Below are positions 2-10,059 of a stretch of DNA of 64,000 bases, piece by piece (position 1 is the first letter of the stretch; every line of letters starts with the position of its first letter). The notes under the pieces are model-generated. The model was given only the letters and a program-made list of their open reading frames with translations, did no database searches and was not told the origin of the DNA. The translations under genes and the position numbers were made by a program. The stretch lies in the IMG/VR virus record IMGVR_UViG_3300027759_000044; one strand, 5' to 3'. This DNA is from a virus (taxonomy: Duplodnaviria > Caudoviricetes).

Positions 2-343
2 TTTACAGTTAATCGTATTGGTAGTATTGTTTATTATGCTATTGCTACAGTATTCATTGCTAACATTTATGATGCACCACTAGGCTTAACAGGACTAGCA
101 GTTGTATTGTTTGGTAGTATCTTAGCAGGACTAGCAAGTGCAGGTACAACAGGTATCCTTACAGTCGCTACAGTGGCAGTTGTGTGTGATTTGTTGAAAT
201 TACCAAGCGAAGCTGTATTAGTATTACTAATCGCAGTTGATCCATTAATGGATATGATTCGCACAGCAAGTCATGTACACGGCAATGTAGCAGTAACAGC
301 ATTTGTCTGCGACAAAGAGGTAGTTACTGGTGGACAAACTTAA
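2..343 (+). CDS. Dicarboxylate/amino acid:cation symporter (DAACS/GltP family), C-terminal part; 5' end lies outside the window
   Basis: Frame is open from base 2: FTVNRIGSIVYYAIATVFIANIY...LASAGTTG...IAVDPLMDMIRTASHVHGN. This matches the DAACS TM7/HP2/TM8 pattern (TxNxxG..A..A.FIA; AxGxxG; AVD...DM.RT..NV.G). Confidence 0.85.
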   Translation, partial: FTVNRIGSIVYYAIATVFIANIYDAPLGLTGLAVVLFGSILAGLASAGTTGILTVATVAVVCDLLKLPSEAVLVLLIAVDPLMDMIRTASHVHGNVAVTAFVCDKEVVTGGQT

Positions 344-932
344 AGATTTTCTCTTTAGTTTATTAACCTATATAGGCGAAAGTCCATTTCGCCTATTTAC
401 CGTTGTCTTTCTCTGTATACTAGGATTTGCTGGTTGGATTGTTTATACAGAAAAAGACAACTTCTTGGCAACATATCGTGCCCAACAAGCATTGCCTAAG
501 ATGAATGGAAGATATGAAGAAGCATATAATTTCTTATTAAAAAATACAGAAATAGAGCTTGTATCTATTATGGAAGTTAACACTTTAATAAACACAAGAA
601 AAATTGTATTTGTGTCCACACGCAATGGTGGAAGAATTAAACAATACGATGGATTAGATGTTGGATTGTTTAGTAAAAACTATGATAACAATAATGATGT
701 TATTGGTTTAATGTCTGGTAAGATACCATGTAGTCCATATCTTAAGCCACAAAGTCTTATTGGATTTGCGTATAGAGAAAATGGTGTTAACTATATGTGT
801 AGAATTAGTGTACCAGCAGAGCCTGGCGTATTCATTGGACAAATTAGTGTAGGTTGGAAAGAACAACCCACTGATGTTGAAGCCGCACAAACCGCATTAG
901 TTATTGCTTCTGCCTTGTTATTTAAAAAATGA
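330..932 (+). CDS. T4 gpT-like holin candidate (one N-terminal TM plus periplasmic GAF-like domain)
   Basis: 200 aa, GTG start, single TM (FTVVFLCILGFAGWIVY). Size, topology and the C-terminal YMC...FIGQISVGW...ASALL segment resemble T4 holin T as recalled. Confidence 0.6.
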   Translation: MDKLKDFLFSLLTYIGESPFRLFTVVFLCILGFAGWIVYTEKDNFLATYRAQQALPKMNGRYEEAYNFLLKNTEIELVSIMEVNTLINTRKIVFVSTRNGGRIKQYDGLDVGLFSKNYDNNNDVIGLMSGKIPCSPYLKPQSLIGFAYRENGVNYMCRISVPAEPGVFIGQISVGWKEQPTDVEAAQTALVIASALLFKK

Positions 933-997
933 GACTTCCTGCTGTCATCGCTATTGGTATTGGTATTTTTATAATCATAATATTGGTTATGGTATGA
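929..997 (+). CDS. 22-aa hydrophobic micropeptide MRLPAVIAIGIGIFIIIILVMV
   Basis: Absent from the ORF track. ATG 929 overlaps the upstream TGA and its TGA overlaps the racemase ATG (ATGA coupling at both ends). Almost wholly hydrophobic. Confidence 0.6.
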   Translation: MRLPAVIAIGIGIFIIIILVMV

Positions 998-1686
998 TTA
1001 AACGATTAGGAGTATTAGGTGGCATGGGCCCTGCCGCAAGTGCTGAATTTATAAGCAGACTAATACAACAAACTCCTGCAACGTGTGACCAAGAACATAT
1101 TCCATTTGTATTATGGAATGAGCCACGAACACCTGATCGTAGTACAAGTATGCGAGCCGGCAATGATGATCCTTTACCGTACTTGAAAGAAGGCATTCTA
1201 TCATTAAAAGCTGTAGGATGTGATTATATTGTCATACCTTGCAACTCAGCACATTACTGGTATACTGAATTAAATGAATTAGGTGTACCAATAATTCATA
1301 TTGTTAGTAGTGTAATTACAGAGTTAGACAGTTTAGCTATTCCAAATCAAACTATTGGTGTAATAGGAACACAAGGTACAATAGAGTACGGAATATATCA
1401 ACAACATTTAATAAAGCAAGGTTGGAAATGTATTGTACCAGACACAGCAGAGATGGATTACTTTGTTCAGCCTGCAATTGATTTTATTAAAGCTGGTAAT
1501 ATGGTGGAAGCAAATTCTTTGTTAGTCAAGGTTATTGACAGTTTAATTTCTCGTGGGGCAAAAGCTGTAGTATTAGGTTGTACAGAATTGCCATTAGCTG
1601 TTAGAGAATTAGAGCTAAACGGCATTCCTTTAGTTAATAGCATAGATAGTTTGGTTAAAAGAGCTATATTTCATGCCAACATGTGA
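994..1686 (+). CDS. Aspartate/glutamate racemase (PLP-independent)
   Basis: Motifs LGVLGGMGPAAS, PDRS, IPCNSAH and LGCTELP carry both catalytic cysteines. Start moved from 904 to ATG 994. Confidence 0.92.
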   Translation: MIKRLGVLGGMGPAASAEFISRLIQQTPATCDQEHIPFVLWNEPRTPDRSTSMRAGNDDPLPYLKEGILSLKAVGCDYIVIPCNSAHYWYTELNELGVPIIHIVSSVITELDSLAIPNQTIGVIGTQGTIEYGIYQQHLIKQGWKCIVPDTAEMDYFVQPAIDFIKAGNMVEANSLLVKVIDSLISRGAKAVVLGCTELPLAVRELELNGIPLVNSIDSLVKRAIFHANM

Positions 1687-1716: not shown

Positions 1717-1746
1717 TTGACAGTACTAGTAGAAATGCTATATACT
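1717..1746 (+). promoter_or_regulatory. sigma70-type promoter for the DUF4214-like gene
   Basis: TTGACA at 1717 and TATACT at 1741 (18-bp spacer). Confidence 0.6.
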
Positions 1747-1778: not shown

Positions 1779-2675
1779 ATGACAACTACAATTACAATCA
1801 AAGACAAACCGGTAAACACTACCTATCAAAACATCACTGGATTAACAGGTGGCGCAGGTGTTGAAGCCGCATTTGATGTTACAAAAACTAACGGAGTATA
1901 TTCCGTTGTATTAGATTCACTAGCCGCTAGCGCAGGTCGCGGTTACTTAGCTGGTGACACAATCACTCTTGCTGGTACGGCACTAGGCGGAACAGTTGCT
2001 AACAACTTAATCGTTACAGTTGCTACTGTTGGTACATTAGGTAAGATTGCTACATTTGGTGTAGTAGGTACAGGTCGTGTTGGCGATGGTACAGTTGATG
2101 TGGTAGTAGATGTTACTGGTACAAGCGGTATTGACACCTATACAACAGGTGGTGCAAGCACAGAGTATACAATTACAAAGACTGCCGCTAAAGTAACACT
2201 AGCAAGCACATTAGTTAGTAACATGGAATTCAATCTTGCCGACCACGAACGTGTTGTCTTTACTGACAAGGCTATTGCTTATGATGCTGCCGGTCGTGCA
2301 GGTGATGTATACGCATTACTAGCAGCCGCACTTGGTGTTGCTGATGTTACTAAAGCATATGAAGGCATTGGTATCTATCTTGCTGATGCTGGTTGGACAA
2401 ACAAAGAATTAGCCACAGCATTACTAGCTACGGACACTTATAAGGCAGACGCCGGTGGTGTTAGTGATGAAACATTCATTAAGCATGTTTACAAAAATGT
2501 AATGGGTACAACTGCTACTTTAGCAGATGTAACTTCATTGACAAATTGGATGACTGCTAACAAGTACAGCCAAGCTGATGTATTAGTTATTGCTAGTGAA
2601 TTGGCAACATTTGAAACAAGTATCGGTTTAGTTGGTTTAGCAACAACTGGTATTGAATATACACCAGTCGTATAA
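1779..2675 (+). CDS. Thr/Ala/Gly-rich surface-type protein with C-terminal DUF4214-like domain
   Basis: AAGGA RBS before ATG 1779. C-terminal SDETFIKHVYKNVMG...QADVL...SE...IGLVGLATTGIEY resembles DUF4214 of proteobacterial S-layer/RTX-type proteins. No signal peptide. Confidence 0.6.
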   Translation: MTTTITIKDKPVNTTYQNITGLTGGAGVEAAFDVTKTNGVYSVVLDSLAASAGRGYLAGDTITLAGTALGGTVANNLIVTVATVGTLGKIATFGVVGTGRVGDGTVDVVVDVTGTSGIDTYTTGGASTEYTITKTAAKVTLASTLVSNMEFNLADHERVVFTDKAIAYDAAGRAGDVYALLAAALGVADVTKAYEGIGIYLADAGWTNKELATALLATDTYKADAGGVSDETFIKHVYKNVMGTTATLADVTSLTNWMTANKYSQADVLVIASELATFETSIGLVGLATTGIEYTPVV

Positions 2676-2823: not shown

Positions 2824-3708
2824 ATGAAGAAAATCGCAATAGCGACATTATTGGCCGCAACAACACTAGTTGCAACTGCTCAAGTATCAGTCTCTGGTAA
2901 AATCAGCGAATTTGCTGACAATACTAAAACAGGTGCAACAAGCAAAACAACTCTTGTTACAGATCCAACAAGCAACTTCACATTTTCAGCAAATGAAAAT
3001 ATTGGTGGTGGTTTGAAGGCTCGTGTAGTATTAGATACAAGTTTGGCAGCTAATGATCCAACAGGTGGCTCTGCAACTAAGTTAGGTGATCGTCAATCAA
3101 CAGTCGGTTTAGCTAACAGACTAGGCAGTGTTGACCTAGGTCGCAACTTACATAGTCACTTCTTAGCAGTTACTAACAATGATGCCTTTGGTACATTGTA
3201 TGGTAGTATTGCCGGTGATGTACATAACTTGCGTGGTCTAAGAATGAGCAATGGTACATTCTTTGCATTGACACCAATCAAAGGTGTAACTGCAACCTAT
3301 GACCGCACAAATAATGGTGTAGGTACTGAAGCAACTAGCTATAGTGCATCAGCAACTGTTATGGGTGTTAATGCTGTAGTTGCCCAATATAGTCAAGGTA
3401 CTGAAAAAAGTACTGTATATGGTGGTAGCGCAAAATTAGGCGGTACTCAAGTATTTTACACACATAGTGATGACAAAGGTGTAGGCGCACATAAGGGTGA
3501 TTTGATTGGCGCAAGTCAAGCATTTGGTCCAGTAACTGCTAAAGCAAGTTTTGGTAAAACAAATACCAATGTTAAAGCTTATTCAATGGGTGCTGATTAT
3601 AACTTCAGTAAGCGTACTGCTCTTGGTGTCAACTATCGTAGTGTTGATGCTACAGGTACAGCAAATGACGTAAAACAAGTTGGAGTTGGTGTAACACATC
3701 GCTTCTAA
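2824..3708 (+). CDS. Gram-negative general porin
   Basis: Signal peptide MKKIAIATLLAATTLVATA, alternating beta-strand pattern, G.VDLGR motif, C-terminal ADYNFSKRT...VGVGVTHRF ending in Phe (BAM signal). Confidence 0.85.
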   Translation: MKKIAIATLLAATTLVATAQVSVSGKISEFADNTKTGATSKTTLVTDPTSNFTFSANENIGGGLKARVVLDTSLAANDPTGGSATKLGDRQSTVGLANRLGSVDLGRNLHSHFLAVTNNDAFGTLYGSIAGDVHNLRGLRMSNGTFFALTPIKGVTATYDRTNNGVGTEATSYSASATVMGVNAVVAQYSQGTEKSTVYGGSAKLGGTQVFYTHSDDKGVGAHKGDLIGASQAFGPVTAKASFGKTNTNVKAYSMGADYNFSKRTALGVNYRSVDATGTANDVKQVGVGVTHRF

Positions 3709-4034: not shown

Positions 4035-5531
4035 ATGGCATTACCAGGCATACAAATAGGTCCAGGCATTGATATAGGAGCTGGTATTTTAATACAACAA
4101 GCTCCTAGTGGTAGTTCTCCGGTTAATACCGTAGCACCGGTTGTAAGTGGTACACCAAATTTTGGTCAAACACTATCAACTACTAATGGCACTTGGACTG
4201 GCACAGCTACAATAACTTTCACATATCAATGGCAACGAAATGGTACTAATATAGGAAGTGCAACGTCTAGTAGCTATACTTTAGTAGCCGCAGATGTAGG
4301 TAATCCAATCAGATGCGTAGTAACTGGTACTAACGGCATTGGTAATTCATCTGCTAATTCTAATGCCACAGCTAATGTATCAGCTATAGCCCCAGATGCG
4401 CCAACTATAGGTACAGCTACAGCTACAGGGTCAACCACAGCAACAGTAGCATATACAGCTCCGGCAAGTAATGGTGGTGCCACTATTACAACATATACAG
4501 CAACAAGTAGTCCAGGTAGCATCACTGGTACATTAAGCCAAGCAGGTAGTGGAACCATCACTGTTTCTGGATTAACAGCAAGCACAAGTTATACATTTAC
4601 AGTTACTGCTACAAATAGTATTGGTACAAGTAGCCCAAGTGCTGCAAGTAATAGTATTACAACATCAGCACCGGCAGCCCCATCAACAGTTGATTACCTT
4701 GTAGTTGCAGGCGGCGGTGGAGGTAACACTAATGATGGTGGTGGTGGTGGCGCCGGTGGATTTAGATATGGTACTTCTTTCTCTATTGGATCTTCATTTA
4801 CTGTAACAGTTGGCGGTGGTGGCGCGGCTCAAACAGGACAAGCAAGTTATGGTAATGCTGGGTCAAATTCAGTATTTTCAAGTATTACGTCAGCCGGCGG
4901 CGGTGCTGGCGGTTCTGGTCAAGGCGGTGGAAATTGGAAAAACGGTGGTGATGGCGGCTCTGGTGGCGGAGGCGGAAACGGTGGCGGAGATAGTTCCGTA
5001 GGAGGCGCCGGCAATACACCAAGCACAAGCCCATCTCAAGGTTTTGGCGGCGGTGCTGGAAGTGGTACTGGTCCAGCTTATCCTGGTGGCGGAGGTGGAG
5101 GAGCTAGTGCGGTTGGGGGTAATGGTCAAGCTCCAAATGGCCCCGGAGGTTCTGGTGGTGCAGGTTCTGTTAACCCAATTACAGGATCAACAACAGGTCA
5201 ATTAAGTGGCGGTAATTACTATTTAGCCGGCGGTGGCGGTGGCGGTGTTGATAATGGCGCGACTCCAGCGGCCGGCGGACTTGGAGGAGGCGGTACAGGA
5301 GGAAATAATGGTACTGCTGCCACAAATGGAACTGCCAATACTGGCGGTGGCGCCGGATCATCAGGTAGATCCACTACAGGTAGTGGTGGCTCTGGTGTTG
5401 TTATTATTGCCTATCCATCTTCATATGCTGACCTTACAACAATTGGTGGTGGTCTAACTTATGCTAAAACAACATCAGGTGGAAACACTATATATACATT
5501 TACAGCTGGAACAGGAACAGTTACGGTGTAA
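4035..5531 (+). CDS. Ig-like + FN3 + glycine-rich virion fibre/adhesin, paralogue 1
   Basis: TYQWQRNG Ig-like module, APDAPTIG...SYTFTVTATNS FN3 module, then poly-Gly domain ending SGVVIIAYP...FTAGTG. Confidence 0.7.
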   Translation: MALPGIQIGPGIDIGAGILIQQAPSGSSPVNTVAPVVSGTPNFGQTLSTTNGTWTGTATITFTYQWQRNGTNIGSATSSSYTLVAADVGNPIRCVVTGTNGIGNSSANSNATANVSAIAPDAPTIGTATATGSTTATVAYTAPASNGGATITTYTATSSPGSITGTLSQAGSGTITVSGLTASTSYTFTVTATNSIGTSSPSAASNSITTSAPAAPSTVDYLVVAGGGGGNTNDGGGGGAGGFRYGTSFSIGSSFTVTVGGGGAAQTGQASYGNAGSNSVFSSITSAGGGAGGSGQGGGNWKNGGDGGSGGGGGNGGGDSSVGGAGNTPSTSPSQGFGGGAGSGTGPAYPGGGGGGASAVGGNGQAPNGPGGSGGAGSVNPITGSTTGQLSGGNYYLAGGGGGGVDNGATPAAGGLGGGGTGGNNGTAATNGTANTGGGAGSSGRSTTGSGGSGVVIIAYPSSYADLTTIGGGLTYAKTTSGGNTIYTFTAGTGTVTV

Positions 5532-5576
5532 TTAAAGTCGGCATAAATAATATTAATATATATTGGAAATAATAAT

Positions 5577-6965
5577 ATGGCAGTGACAATAGGCGGAAAC
5601 ATAACAATAGGTGGTGGTATTACTCTAATACCAGAATCAAGCACAAGTCCCCCAGTTAATACCGTAGCACCGGTTGTAAGTGGTACAGCTAATTTTGGTC
5701 AAACACTATCAACTACTGATGGTACTTGGACTGGCACAGCTACAATAACATTTACATATCAATGGCAACGCAATGGAGTTAATATAGGAAGTGCTACTGC
5801 TAGCACATATACATTAGTAGCTGCAGATGTGGGTAATCCAATTAGATGTGTAGTAACTGGTACAAATGGTATTGGTAACTCATCTGCTAATTCTAATGCT
5901 ACATCTAATGTATCAGCAATTTCACCAGGAGCTCCTACAATAGGTACAGCCACAGCTACAGGTGCTACTACTGCAACTGTATCATATACCGCTCCAGCAA
6001 GTAATGGCGGTGCTACTATTACAACATACACAGCAACAAGCAGTCCTGGTGGCATCACCGGTACATTAAGCCAAGCAGGTAGTGGTACTATTAATGTTAC
6101 TGGATTAACAGCTGGTACAAGTTACACATTTACTGTTACTGCTACTAACAGTGTTGGTACTGGTTCAGCTAGTGCATCAAGTAATAGCATTACGACAGAT
6201 GCCGCATTTAGTTATCTTGTTGTTGCGGGCGGCGGTGGAGGATCCGGTGGCGGTGGTGGTGCAGGTGGTATGCTAACTGGTACAGCTACATTCTCTGGTT
6301 CCTATACAGTCACCGTGGGCGCAGGCGGTAGTGCTGGCACGCAAACTAGCGGAAATGCTTCTCCTGGAACTAATTCAATTATAACTGGGTATACCGCAGT
6401 TGGCGGTGGATATGGTGCTGGAGCTTATGCAGTAGTTAACGGTGGTTCTGGTGGCTCTGGTGGCGGTGGTTCAATTGGTTCTTTTATTATAGGAGTAGGA
6501 GCAGGAGGTACTGCAACAGCAGGACAAGGTTATGCAGGCGGATCAGGCACTGCAACAACTACCGCATATGGCTGGCTTTCTGGTGGCGGTGGTGGTGCTG
6601 GCGGGGTAGGTGCTAGTACCCAAGATATTGATACTGGTGCTGTAGGAGGTGGTGCGGGTGGTGCCGGCTTAGCATCATCTATTACAGGATCTTCTGTTAC
6701 CTATGCTGCTGGAGGTAAAGGCTATTGGTCTACCGGTGTCACCGGAGATGCCACAGCAAATTCAGGAAACGGCGGAGGTGGTTCAAGAACTTTTCAGGCG
6801 GCAAGTGCTGGATGGAACGGAGGCTCTGGTGTAGTAATTATTGCTTACCCAGATAGTTATCCAGCTATCTCCTCAATTGGAGGTGGTTTAACATACACCC
6901 AACCATCTAGAGCTGGTTACCGAGTGTATAGATTTACTGCTGGTACAGGAACTATTACTTTCTAA
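5577..6965 (+). CDS. Ig-like + FN3 + glycine-rich fibre/adhesin, paralogue 2
   Basis: Same architecture as 4035-5531, with its own ATAAATA upstream. Confidence 0.7.
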   Translation: MAVTIGGNITIGGGITLIPESSTSPPVNTVAPVVSGTANFGQTLSTTDGTWTGTATITFTYQWQRNGVNIGSATASTYTLVAADVGNPIRCVVTGTNGIGNSSANSNATSNVSAISPGAPTIGTATATGATTATVSYTAPASNGGATITTYTATSSPGGITGTLSQAGSGTINVTGLTAGTSYTFTVTATNSVGTGSASASSNSITTDAAFSYLVVAGGGGGSGGGGGAGGMLTGTATFSGSYTVTVGAGGSAGTQTSGNASPGTNSIITGYTAVGGGYGAGAYAVVNGGSGGSGGGGSIGSFIIGVGAGGTATAGQGYAGGSGTATTTAYGWLSGGGGGAGGVGASTQDIDTGAVGGGAGGAGLASSITGSSVTYAAGGKGYWSTGVTGDATANSGNGGGGSRTFQAASAGWNGGSGVVIIAYPDSYPAISSIGGGLTYTQPSRAGYRVYRFTAGTGTITF

Positions 6966-7003
6966 AGTTAACATAAATATAAATATATAATAGGAATAAT
7001 AGC

Positions 7004-8212
7004 ATGGCATTACAAATAGGTGGAAATATTGTTATTGGTGGTAATATCACACTTCAAATAGAGTCTGGTGTTACGGTGCCAGGTGCTCCTACAATAGGTA
7101 CAGCTACAGCTACAGGTGCATCAACAGCCACAGTAGCATTTACTGCTCCAGCAAGTAATGGTAATGCCACGATTACAACGTATACAGCGACAAGTAGTCC
7201 TGGCGGTATCACTGGTACACTAAGTCAAGCAGGTAGTGGTACTATTAATGTTACTGGATTAAGTCCAAGTACAAGTTATACATTTACTGTAACTGCTACT
7301 AATAGTGTTGGTACAGGTAGTCCAAGTTCGGCAAGCAATAGCATAACTACTGCAGCATTAAGTGCTTCAATTCAATATTTAGTAGTTGCAGGAGGCGGTG
7401 GATCAGCCGGCAGTGGTAGTGTCAATCCAGGTGGCGGCGGAGCCGGCGGATTTAGATCATCTACTCTTTCGGCATCTTTAAGCACAAATTACACAGTAAC
7501 CGTAGGTGGCGGAGGAGCCGGAGTACCTAATAATAGTCAGAGTGATGGATCACCTGGTTCTAACTCAGTATTCAGCTCTATAACTTCTGCAGGTGGAGGT
7601 GGTGCTAATGGATTTAACACTGCTACCGGCGGTAGCGGTGGTTCTGGCTCCGGCGGTTTTGGCTCTGGAGGTGGCGGTTCAACTAAAGGTTTTGGTAATA
7701 CTCCAAGCACAAGTCCTTCACAAGGTAATGACGGTGGTAATGGGGGCGGTTCTCCATACTATGGAGGTGGAGGTGGAGGTGCAGGAGGTGCAGGCTCTAA
7801 TGGCGGATCAAGCGTAGGAAATGGTGGTATTGGAGCAGCCAATCCAATTGCAGGATCAACGACAGGTGAATTCTCTGGTGGACAATATTACCTAGCTGGT
7901 GGTGGCGGTTCTGGTAGTAATGGACCAACTGCATCAGCCGGTGGTCTTGGTGGTGGTGGGTACGGTAGTAATGGATCAGCAGTTGCGGCTGCAGGAGCAA
8001 CTAACACCGGAGGTGGCGGGGGCGGAGGTACTAATGTCGGAAGTCCTTATGATCAAGGTAAAGCCGGCGGATCAGGTGTTGTTGTACTTAAATATCCAGA
8101 TACTTATACAATTACAGTTGGCGGCGGGCTAACAAGCTCAACATCTTCACCATCAGGTGGATACAAAATAACAACATTTACTGCCGGAACAGGCAACGTA
8201 CAATGGAATTAA
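7004..8212 (+). CDS. FN3 + glycine-rich fibre/adhesin, paralogue 3 (lacks the Ig-like module)
   Basis: The shared N-terminal leader joins directly to the FN3 module. Confidence 0.7.
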   Translation: MALQIGGNIVIGGNITLQIESGVTVPGAPTIGTATATGASTATVAFTAPASNGNATITTYTATSSPGGITGTLSQAGSGTINVTGLSPSTSYTFTVTATNSVGTGSPSSASNSITTAALSASIQYLVVAGGGGSAGSGSVNPGGGGAGGFRSSTLSASLSTNYTVTVGGGGAGVPNNSQSDGSPGSNSVFSSITSAGGGGANGFNTATGGSGGSGSGGFGSGGGGSTKGFGNTPSTSPSQGNDGGNGGGSPYYGGGGGGAGGAGSNGGSSVGNGGIGAANPIAGSTTGEFSGGQYYLAGGGGSGSNGPTASAGGLGGGGYGSNGSAVAAAGATNTGGGGGGGTNVGSPYDQGKAGGSGVVVLKYPDTYTITVGGGLTSSTSSPSGGYKITTFTAGTGNVQWN

Positions 8213-8228
8213 TTAAAAAGGAAAAAAT

Positions 8229-8594
8229 ATGGCACATTACGCATTCTTAGATGAAAACAAAATCGTTACTGAAGTTATAGTAGGTAAAGATGAAGGTGAA
8301 AACGGTATTGATTGGGAACAACACTACGGTGACTTCCGAGGTCAAACTTGTAAACGCACAAGCTACAACACTTATGGAGGTGTTCATTTAAACAGTGGCA
8401 CACCATTACGTAAGAATTATGCAGGTATAGGCTACACATATGATGAAACACTTGATGCTTTTATACCTCCCAAACCATTTGCATCTTGGACATTAAACGA
8501 AACTAGTTGTTTGTGGGAAGCACCCACACCAATGCCAACAGATGATAAAATGTATCGTTGGGATGAAGAAACAATGTCTTGGCTTGAAATATAA
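8229..8594 (+). CDS. Fibre-associated protein, possible assembly chaperone
   Basis: MAHYAFLDEN...YAGIGYTYD..LDAFIPPKPFASW...WDE; sits within the fibre array. Confidence 0.55.
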   Translation: MAHYAFLDENKIVTEVIVGKDEGENGIDWEQHYGDFRGQTCKRTSYNTYGGVHLNSGTPLRKNYAGIGYTYDETLDAFIPPKPFASWTLNETSCLWEAPTPMPTDDKMYRWDEETMSWLEI

Positions 8595-8610
8595 TAATTA
8601 AGGTAGTAGT

Positions 8611-10059
8611 ATGGCATTAGAAATAGGCACCGGAATCACGATAGGTACTGGTATTACATTACAAATTGAAACAGGCGGTTCAGCTCCAGTTAACACAGTG
8701 GCACCTGTTGTTAGTGGTACAGCTACTGTTGGTCAAACATTATCAACTACTAATGGTACTTGGACTGGTACAGCCACAATAACATTTACATATCAATGGC
8801 AACGAAATGGTACTAATATAGGAAGTGCAACGTCTAGTAACTACACATTAGTAAATGCTGATGCTGGTAATCCAATTAGATGTGTAGTAACTGGTACAAA
8901 TGGTATTGGTAATTCATCTGCTAACTCTAATGCTACAGCTAATGTATCTGCTATTGCTCCCGGAGCTCCAACTATAGGTGCAGCCACAGCTACAGGATCA
9001 ACAACAGCCACAGTAGCATATACAGCTCCAGCAAGTAATGGCGGTGCCACTATTACAACATATACCGCAACAAGCAGTCCTGGTGGCATCACCGGTACAC
9101 TAAGTCAAGCAGGTAGTGGTACTATTACAGTTTCAGGATTAAGTGGAAGTACAAGTTACACATTTACCGTAACAGCAACTAACAGTGCTGGTACAGGTAG
9201 TCCAAGTAGTGCAAGTAATAGCATTACAACATCAACACCGGTAGCAACATCATCTGTTGATTATCTTGTTGTTGCAGGTGGCGGAGGATGTGCTGGTCCA
9301 TATCACGGAGGTGGCGGCGGTGCGGGAGGTTTATATTATGCTTCTGGATTCTCTGTTAGTGGCGGAGTTAACGTAACTGTTGGTGCAGGCGGTGCTGGTT
9401 CTGTAAATGGAAGTAGCAGTACATTTTCATCAGTTACTGCTTCAGGAGGAGGAGGAGCATATGCTGATGCTAATGGCTTGAACGGTGGTAGCGGTGGTGG
9501 TGCCGGTGGCTATCAAGAGATTGGTGGTAGCGGTATTGCTGGACAAGGATATGCCGGTGGTAATTCTAATGTAACCAATGGTACTAATGCTCGTGGTGGC
9601 GGAGGAGGTGGAGGTGCAGGCGGAGTAGGTGGTAATTTAATTCCTAATGCATCAAATACACCTACACAATATGCGGGTAATGGCGGTGTAGGACTTGCTT
9701 TAAGCATTACTGGAACATCTGTTTACTATGCAGGAGGTGGTGGTGCCGGAGCCGACTACGTTACTTGGAATACAGTTAAAGGTACCGGTGGTTTAGGTGG
9801 AGGCGGTGATGGTGGCCAACAAGGCGGAGCAGGATCCTCAACACCCACAAACGGAACTGCAAATACAGGAGGAGGTGCCGGTGGTGTAAGCCCTGCTTTA
9901 ACATCAGTTAACGGTGGCTCTGGTGTTGTGATTATTGCTTATCCATCAAGCTACCGAGATTTGTCAGGTATTGATGCTGGACTAACTTATACCAAAACTA
10001 CTTCAGGTGGAAACACAATTTACAAATTTACTGCTGGTACCGGAAGTATTACTTTCTAA
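8611..10059 (+). CDS. Ig-like + FN3 + glycine-rich fibre/adhesin, paralogue 4
   Basis: Same architecture; C-terminus closest to paralogue 1. Confidence 0.7.
   Translation: MALEIGTGITIGTGITLQIETGGSAPVNTVAPVVSGTATVGQTLSTTNGTWTGTATITFTYQWQRNGTNIGSATSSNYTLVNADAGNPIRCVVTGTNGIGNSSANSNATANVSAIAPGAPTIGAATATGSTTATVAYTAPASNGGATITTYTATSSPGGITGTLSQAGSGTITVSGLSGSTSYTFTVTATNSAGTGSPSSASNSITTSTPVATSSVDYLVVAGGGGCAGPYHGGGGGAGGLYYASGFSVSGGVNVTVGAGGAGSVNGSSSTFSSVTASGGGGAYADANGLNGGSGGGAGGYQEIGGSGIAGQGYAGGNSNVTNGTNARGGGGGGGAGGVGGNLIPNASNTPTQYAGNGGVGLALSITGTSVYYAGGGGAGADYVTWNTVKGTGGLGGGGDGGQQGGAGSSTPTNGTANTGGGAGGVSPALTSVNGGSGVVIIAYPSSYRDLSGIDAGLTYTKTTSGGNTIYKFTAGTGSITF

Follow-up and report, generated by a model that had tools for sequence, protein, structure and literature searches.

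A putative import-and-racemisation operon with a nested holin homologue in freshwater T4-like phages

Layout, extent and conservation of the operon

The first 1686 nucleotides (nt) of a stretch of viral DNA, IMG/VR record IMGVR_UViG_3300027759_000044, hold the 3′ part of an operon of five genes, which encode a binding protein of family SBP_bac_3, an SDF/DAACS carrier, a protein here called ORF2, a small peptide and a racemase. Coordinates without a prefix are those of the whole 64,000-nt stretch that was analysed, which we call the window, and those with an L prefix belong to other loci; the operon genes all lie on the + strand. The window, with a G+C content of about 36%, is DNA of a phage of the T4 kind, with genes for a large terminase, a gp15-like sheath stabiliser and UvsW- and DnaB-type helicases. 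Reading of the sequence confirmed the four + strand open reading frames (ORFs) that an initial annotation had placed here, together with the overlapping stops and starts that join them, and the same overlaps recur in relatives. The four genes stood as described, but not the extent of the operon that they were said to form, since it begins further upstream with the SBP_bac_3 gene, outside the window. The features within the window are as follows.

2..343, + strand: 3′ end (last 113 codons) of the SDF/DAACS carrier gene (Pfam SDF, E-value 1.3e-16, profile positions 286-384 of 387)
315..320, + strand: Shine-Dalgarno-like AAGAGG, 9 nt 5′ of the ORF2 start and within the end of the carrier gene (read directly)
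330..932, + strand: ORF2, 200 amino acids (aa), GTG start, remote homologue of T4 holin T (fold, profile-profile comparison and context)
929..997, + strand: ORF of 22 codons; the peptide is hydrophobic, has one helix and reads MRLPAV and then 16 hydrophobic residues (conservation in relatives)
994..1686, + strand: two-cysteine aspartate-type racemase, independent of pyridoxal phosphate (PLP), 230 aa (Pfam Asp_Glu_race, E-value 1.1e-41, full-length)
1717..1746, + strand: sigma-70-like promoter, TTGACA, 18 nt, TATACT, 11 of 12 matches, opening the next unit (consensus scan)

The start of ORF2, which is ATG in most relatives, overlaps the carrier stop codon by 14 nt. The 22-codon ORF shares an ATGA with its neighbour at either end, its ATG overlapping the stop codon (TGA) of ORF2 and its TGA the start codon (ATG) of the racemase gene. 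No terminator was found between position 1686 and the promoter at 1717-1746, and this promoter marks the 3′ limit of the operon. A DNA search of a phage collection with the first 6 kb of the window gave a sole match, which was short and lay in a glycine-rich gene.

The upstream half was recovered from L001, a 16-kb lake metagenome contig found through an exact look-up of the racemase, which differs from the window by 9 mismatches in 11,686 nt (99.9% identical). To the 5′ side of the window a terminator comes first, then a TAAATA late-type promoter motif, the SBP_bac_3 gene and an intact carrier gene, the last two being placed as follows.

L001:2079-2897: SBP_bac_3 gene, 272 aa with a Sec-type signal peptide (binding protein, family 3)
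L001:2907-4184: full SDF carrier gene, 425 codons, beginning 9 nt after the SBP_bac_3 gene

Truncation or decay of the transporter upstream, which had been raised as a possibility when only the 3′ end was in view, was checked against this contig; with the whole 425-aa carrier and a binding-protein gene present there, both are dismissed, and the operon comprises five ORFs.

A TATAAATA or ATAAATA motif lies 7-12 nt 5′ of the binding-protein start in most relatives, and the same late-type motif is found 5′ of the large-terminase gene of the window; judged by this motif, the operon is probably expressed late. Two promoters in L001 (L001:1205-1232 and L001:2048-2072) share one layout, a TGTCA-type heptamer, 4 nt, a second heptamer and TAAATA, and the spacing of the Pho-like box before the binding-protein gene equals that of the box before the neighbouring gene. 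This box is kept only in the closest relatives (L002 and L033) while the TATAAATA motif is widespread, and phosphate control was therefore rejected as a general feature of the cassette. Two lake metatranscriptome runs contained small shares of this DNA, one 170-nt contig spanning the carrier/ORF2 junction and others lying on the next gene; since these are contigs only and DNA carry-over is possible, we do not take them as proof of transcription.

Linkage of the genes across related phages had been proposed as a check, and was examined by scanning IMG/VR with ORF2 and with the racemase, which gave about 80 loci. With duplicates removed, 35 distinct loci have the genes in the order binding protein, carrier, ORF2, racemase, with all four proteins conserved, and the overlapping frames recur, so that the arrangement is beyond chance. 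The phages that carry it include near-complete genomes of 332-353 kb, one of them with terminal repeats.

Predicted import and racemisation of an acidic amino acid

We put at about 0.55 the probability that this is a late operon of an uncultured freshwater T4-like phage (with near-complete relatives of about 350 kb) in which a captured unit that binds, imports and racemises an aspartate-like amino acid has a holin and a peptide lodged inside it. In the periplasm the binding protein would capture an aspartate-like acidic α-amino acid and pass it to the carrier, a divergent elevator-type SDF protein that would move it across the inner membrane, and the racemase would equilibrate the L and D forms in the cytoplasm, making either enantiomer usable. 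The most likely use would be the scavenging of either enantiomer for the infected cell, L-aspartate feeding nucleotide and protein synthesis and the net flux running from D to L as L-aspartate is consumed. The operon would be read late and the holin would use the ribosome-binding site that precedes it; no such site belongs to the peptide or the racemase, which are thus probably translated by re-initiating ribosomes, an arrangement that would tie their output to that of the holin.

The module of import and racemisation that the initial annotation had proposed gains support from the carrier, in which the residues that bind aspartate are kept, and from the clustering of carrier, binding protein and racemase in bacteria. 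The SDF family is assigned to the whole 425-aa product, with helical hairpins 1 and 2 (HP1 and HP2) and transmembrane (TM) helices 7 and 8 all present, and the best match in the PDB is the aspartate transporter 9bgz (E-value 7e-28, over residues 18-417). In an alignment to 9bgz the phages, like most bacterial members of the subfamily, retain the TM8 motif DPLMDMIRT and the HP1 motif SSRSS. The carrier has equivalents of GltPh D394, R397 and T398, in what we take to be the GltPh numbering, which contact aspartate at its amino group and distal acid group, as well as the HP1 RSS. The sodium-site residues are changed across the subfamily: NMDGT has become NRIGS in the phages or xxR-hydrophobic-G in the bacteria, a conserved Arg stands in place of the Met (Met311) of that motif, and N401 is replaced by His or a hydrophobic residue and D405 by Asn. 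On these residues the carrier is best classed as a member of the SDF superfamily that lies outside the sodium-coupled Glt type.

Binding proteins of family SBP_bac_3 are normally partners of ATP-binding cassette (ABC) transporters. The phage protein has the conserved amino-acid-binding signature SxTxxR and RDE, and its best PDB relatives are binding proteins of amino-acid ABC transporters; in every one of the 35 phage loci, however, as in all six bacterial genomes found with the carrier subfamily, its gene adjoins that of the carrier, and ABC components are absent. This subfamily may on such gene pairing be a new kind of binding-protein-dependent carrier. Known secondary transporters that depend on a binding protein are TAXI-GltS of Bordetella pertussis (PMC12344293) and likewise those of the TRAP and TTT families. 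As in these, the binding-protein gene stands directly upstream of that for an elevator-type secondary carrier, without an ABC ATPase or permease; the families differ, being SBP_bac_3 and SDF/DAACS, and no fused form was found. A long open frame in one Burkholderiales genome had the appearance of a gene for such a fusion and was rejected, the matches to binding protein and carrier lying in different frames. Prediction of a complex of ORF2, as the scored partner, with the carrier and the mature binding protein returned 0.00 and ‘no answer’, which speaks neither for nor against binding. A search of the ESM Atlas with the carrier gave only generic SDF clusters, and in the literature, of which our coverage was partial, no binding-protein-dependent DAACS carrier was found.

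The bacterial counterpart was met in few genomes. The carrier subfamily occurs, at 31-37% identity, in three of 401 sampled Alphaproteobacteria and three of 401 sampled Burkholderiales, each time with an SBP_bac_3 homologue (31-41% identity) directly upstream. A racemase gene is adjacent in five of the six, and two genomes have the order binding protein, carrier, racemase with gaps of about 5-11 nt. A tblastn search with ORF2 gave no homologue in these bacterial loci, and in the phages the holin, with or without the peptide, occupies the place of the short gap between carrier and racemase. From the clustering of the three genes in Alpha- and Betaproteobacteria without ORF2 we infer that the phage captured a bacterial bind-import-racemise unit. 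The closest bacterial racemases (44-50% identity) are those of Acetobacteraceae and Alcaligenaceae, beside which the phage racemases form one clade in a tree.

The racemase matches Pfam Asp_Glu_race (PF01177) over positions 1-211 of 211, and its best PDB matches include 3s7z (E-value 8.7e-46) and AspR of Pyrococcus horikoshii, 1jfl (E-value 2e-39). Both catalytic cysteines that had been reported from the sequence are present: C83 and C196, which correspond in the alignment to Cys82 and Cys194 of 1JFL, lie in the motifs CNSAH and GCTE (CNxAH/GCTE type) and are invariant in 23 phage homologues. A conserved Arg and Lys, basic residues of the pocket, also align with AspR, presumably at its positions 48 and 164. 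The enzyme thus shares length, fold family and both cysteines with the solved aspartate racemases of P. horikoshii (1JFL/2DX7) and Salmonella (3S7Z), but is no more than 37-40% identical to them.

Among curated families the racemase scores 217 bits against CuyB (NF052483, cut-off 190) and 164 bits against asp_race (TIGR00035, cut-off 93), and the former score, well above the latter, favours a different substrate: L-cysteate would be imported, racemised to D-cysteate and, as happens in Bilophila wadsworthia, split by a host CuyA into pyruvate, ammonium and sulfite. The cysteate locus of that bacterium has genes for an SDF carrier, the CuyB racemase, the D-cysteate sulfo-lyase CuyA and RidA (PMC11193023). 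There, as in the phage, the SDF carrier gene adjoins that of a PF01177 two-cysteine racemase, and import of the L form followed by racemisation has been proposed; the phage carrier also keeps the Arg that binds the distal acid group. The phage operon differs in that it has neither CuyA nor RidA, adds a periplasmic binding protein, has a carrier without the sodium site and holds a holin and a micropeptide between carrier and racemase. Eight of nine bacterial racemase relatives from unrelated contexts (citrate synthase, D-aminoacylase and Vibrio loci among them) also pass the CuyB cut-off, and score higher than the phage protein (218-267 bits), only the most distant (L183, 105 bits) falling below it. 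The model therefore does not tell cysteate from aspartate racemases, and the automatic name ‘cysteate racemase’ may be over-specific in this proteobacterial clade. Further, a search of the genomes of five related phages, of which four are 95% complete or more, found no PALP/CuyA protein (PF00291), with controls that matched in 14 of 14, and no CuyA was seen beside the bacterial clusters examined. A cysteate module accordingly seems to us improbable. Given the breadth of the CuyB model and the lack of CuyA in the phages, the substrate is predicted to be an aspartate-like acidic amino acid, with aspartate as the first guess and cysteate or hydroxy-aspartate as alternatives. In Achromobacter a close relative of the racemase adjoins TctC and an Amidohydro_3 protein, which we take to belong to the D-aminoacylase family.

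The initial annotation had regarded the pairing of such a carrier and racemase as without a characterised phage precedent. This does not hold in general, in view of the Bilophila locus; for phages no paper on the pairing was found, nor did the literature that we covered, in part, contain a phage aspartate racemase described as an auxiliary gene. Matches to the racemase and carrier in a protein collection labelled ‘phages’ proved to be mostly apparent bacterial or unannotated fragments filed as phage, and were not used as precedents.

Cyanophage pstS is a nutrient-uptake auxiliary gene of phages. The operon described here resembles it in encoding a phage-borne periplasmic binding protein that would capture a nutrient, and in having, in the lineage of the window phage, a Pho-like box before the promoter; it differs in including a membrane carrier and a cytoplasmic enzyme, and in its predicted use for an amino acid rather than phosphate. 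Phages are known for single nutrient-capture genes, and the present set would provide a whole path, extended by a porin in some relatives, across dozens of abundant lake phages. The operon draws attention, moreover, to a bacterial gene cluster, seemingly undescribed, in which a family-3 binding protein is always paired with a sodium-site-less carrier of the glutamate-transporter type, and which would, if the two proteins work together, constitute a further class of secondary transporter that depends on a binding protein. The individual parts all come from known superfamilies; as far as a limited literature search went, the combination in a phage, the pairing of SBP_bac_3 with SDF, the extension of the T-holin family (below) and the nesting of a holin appear to be new.

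The ORF2 protein and the small peptide

ORF2 has no match in Pfam or NCBIfam and belongs to phrog_31287, a family without annotated function. An AlphaFold (AF2) model built from 25 homologues, with a mean predicted local distance difference test (pLDDT) score of 81.8, has an N-terminal helix, a TM helix at about residues 21-40 and a GAF-like α/β C-terminal domain. When solved structures were searched with Foldseek, the periplasmic domain of T4 holin T (6pxe, 6psk and 6px4) was among the best matches, alongside generic GAF domains, and among viral models there were full-length matches that include proteins named class III holin and T holin. A word-based search for homologues found only near-identical metagenome copies, and distant members were reached by an exhaustive profile search, which gave 142 cluster representatives, most of the full-length ones being of about 190-250 aa. 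Profile-profile alignment with hhalign of 65 family members to eight annotated T holins gave a probability of 96.5% (E-value 8.2e-10, 178 columns, columns 5-187 against 4-192); T4 T alone against the ORF2 family profile gave only 12%, and the holin T model PF11031 had no match at E-values up to 10 in 25 ORF2 members and none at E-values up to 1 in the phage genomes.

Together these comparisons support the ‘T-like’ label that the initial annotation had given to ORF2, and identify it as a remote homologue of T4 holin T (gene t, PF11031), a class III holin known from structures with the antiholin RI (6PSK, 6PX4 and 6PXE). The two proteins share a length of about 200-218 aa, a cytoplasmic N-terminal helix, one TM helix and a periplasmic GAF-like domain, with a fold match (TM-score) of about 0.55-0.67 by target length; both belong to T4-like phages and have a late-type promoter motif upstream. 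C134 is invariant and C157 nearly so across the ORF2 family, and this pair suggests an oxidising compartment and would fit a periplasmic disulfide, although the cysteines of T are at other positions, C175 and C207. Other differences are that no RI-like antiholin was seen, a one-helix peptide of 19-22 aa following ORF2 in half of the loci, that the ORF2 gene is embedded in a transport operon, and that the Pfam model itself gives no match.

Gene context bears on the function of this family. A distant member lies directly 5′ of a Phage_lysozyme gene, with a 4-nt overlap, and others lie two genes before Peptidase_M15_3 and two genes before a lysozyme gene. In the window phage no endolysin gene adjoins ORF2, and a search of four relatives with PF00959 (T4-type lysozyme) found none. 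The family is present in a single copy in three of four near-complete relatives, the fourth having a second, distant copy, and a 66%-identical copy of ORF2 occurs in an unrelated small phage beside a terminase gene, without carrier or racemase. The second copy in the fourth relative (L194:6671-7746, G004) is a T-like paralogue (26% identity) with a Lys/Pro-rich N-terminus; the ORF after it, of 114 aa, has a lipoprotein-type signal (LLISC) and may encode a spanin, and the two may form a separate lysis cassette. The phrog_31287 members of the T4-like Straboviridae Cronobacter phage S13 (L087, S13_076), LPCS28 and Citrobacter phage Ci1 are annotated as hypothetical; in S13, the only one of these checked, there is no match to PF11031, and the phrog_31287 gene may thus be its unrecognised holin. 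The T4 holin T family would in this way be extended to a large unannotated set, which gives giant phages a candidate holin.

The position of ORF2 could also be read as that of a transporter part, either a membrane-anchored periplasmic GAF-like sensor or an accessory subunit of the carrier, with the peptide as a second small subunit. The frame overlap with the carrier gene is conserved in all loci, the GAF fold is a common small-molecule sensor, and small hydrophobic peptides such as KdpF and AcrZ are partners of transporters. A subunit would not be expected, however, to lack a tblastn homologue in the bacterial clusters, to occur in a phage without the carrier, to belong to a family homologous to T4 holin T whose distant members directly precede endolysin genes, or to diverge without correlation with the carrier (Spearman rho 0.28), and we regard a subunit role as very unlikely. 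From its fold, the profile-profile match, the context of lysis genes and the carrier-free 66% copy, ORF2 is read instead as probably the holin of the phage, its gene and that of the small peptide being phage genes lodged within the unit and not parts of the transporter.

The micropeptide recognised in the initial annotation is a conserved ORF. It is found in 18 of the 35 loci, with 19-22 codons and always ending on the racemase start, and follows the pattern M(M)RLPxV and then 13-16 hydrophobic residues. Leu3, Pro4 and Val6 are encoded by 5, 3 and 3 synonymous codons respectively across these loci, and since the residues are maintained by different codons the peptide itself is under purifying selection, rather than the ORF serving as mere spacing. 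In 14 loci the ORF is cleanly absent, and it is also absent in L006 and L007, which have an ORF2 identical to that of the window and lack a stretch of 68 nt, so that the ORF2 stop overlaps the racemase ATG. Forms with and without the small ORF both occur in one lake sample. The small peptide is dispensable.

The holin may have come to lie within the unit by chance insertion and have been retained there through linkage, or its place may genuinely couple the timing of lysis to the module, and a holin nested in a metabolic operon could link the timing of lysis to nutrient state. In its fullest form this idea would have SBP_bac_3 and the sodium-site-less SDF carrier, with its Arg at the Met311 position, as an undescribed class of transporter taken over by freshwater giant phages, and the T-type holin, with the peptide as its modulator, deliberately nested in it as a nutrient-linked lysis clock, in which one transcript and one flow of ribosomes would govern both the timing of lysis and the late import and racemisation, a combination that we think unlikely. 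A different proposal, close to that of the initial annotation, is that the module makes D-aspartate or D-glutamate, which alters the host wall or biofilm or acts as a signal, and is wired to the holin so that the timing of lysis depends on the product. The presence of the holin gene inside the unit, the translational coupling of the racemase to it in every locus and the late-type promoter motif would suit this, and two bacterial clusters lie near a gene for an enzyme with Ala_racemase_N and D-ser_dehydrat domains, so that the D form is used there. But racemases run in both directions, and a racemase alone yields no net D form unless this is consumed; the same three genes occur in bacteria without a lysis gene; no wall-incorporating enzyme was noticed, in analyses that included no search aimed at one; and to our knowledge D-aspartate is not a normal component of Gram-negative peptidoglycan. 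There seems little to recommend a D-amino-acid signal over the scavenging use that we prefer.

Mosaicism of the cassette, neighbouring genes and bacterial loci

The genes of the cassette have not diverged in step. Median pairwise identity among the 35 loci is 85% for the binding protein, 88% for the carrier, 76% for ORF2 and 63% for the racemase, and divergence is correlated between binding protein and carrier (Spearman rho 0.68), with rho of 0.18-0.30 for every other pair. As only these two co-vary, the cassette is mosaic, though its content and order are kept. The racemase follows ORF2 directly in 14 of the 35 loci and the small ORF in 18, and in the remaining 3 genes amounting to 1-2 kb are inserted in between. 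L006:803-2082 is 100% identical to the window (330-1686) in ORF2, and its adjoining racemase is only 69% identical; the racemase alleles have apparently been swapped by recombination at the ORF2/racemase junction. At L018:6629-8322 a 302-aa glycine-rich protein, of the kind encoded at window positions 4035-10059, and a 273-aa ORF are inserted between holin and racemase, and L023 and L028 have other insertions at this junction.

Such differing histories, and the extra genes between ORF2 and racemase in three loci, could be taken to mean that there is no functional unit, the operon being a run of adjoining late genes in a mosaic genome in which carrier and racemase serve unrelated ends. This is hard to reconcile with the binding-protein, carrier and racemase genes being neighbours in five of six bacterial genomes from two classes, or with an order kept in 35 of 35 phage loci despite recombination, and we hold it to be highly improbable.

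Several points nevertheless weigh against the captured unit for scavenging an aspartate-like amino acid that we favour. The constant place of the holin and the overlapping frames in 35 loci, maintained despite recombination, hint at a functional tie, and one would hardly expect a metabolic booster to be expressed late. All of the GltPh sodium-site residues are missing from the carrier, which bears on its energy coupling and even on the direction of transport; the best-scoring curated family of the racemase is CuyB, so that the substrate is not fixed; and the racemase tree does not show joint entry with the binding protein and carrier.

Downstream of the operon, the strong sigma-70-like promoter at 1717-1746 serves a gene for a 298-aa protein with a weak match to DUF4214 (window 1779-2675), which is followed by a terminator at 2693-2713 and accompanies the cassette only in a subset of relatives (L008-L011 and L019/L020). 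Window positions 2824-3708 encode an outer-membrane porin (Porin_4, E-value 7.6e-22), also found only in some relatives. A search with the porin for the host gave no match at E-values up to 1e-15 in the 401 sampled Burkholderiales genomes. In L033 a porin of 49% identity is encoded directly after the racemase. Porin, binding protein, carrier and racemase would, by their predicted locations, span every layer of the envelope.

Among the bacterial loci, three from Alphaproteobacteria have a dCache-HAMP-adenylate/guanylate cyclase near the cluster (L131:5770-7998, L182:10063-12225 and L183:5802-7973), in L183 between binding protein and carrier, which suggests that the cyclase senses the same ligand as the cluster. 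The PLP enzyme of D-amino-acid type (Ala_racemase_N and D-ser_dehydrat) mentioned above is found near two clusters, and LysR regulators are near two. In two Burkholderiales loci (L184:3276-13409 and L185:3753-12592) a type VI secretion locus encloses the block of binding protein and carrier, with or without the racemase, along with a second SDF paralogue; the block has VgrG, a MORN-repeat protein and a DUF4280 (PAAR-like) protein on one side and TssK on the other, a position usually occupied by effector and immunity genes.

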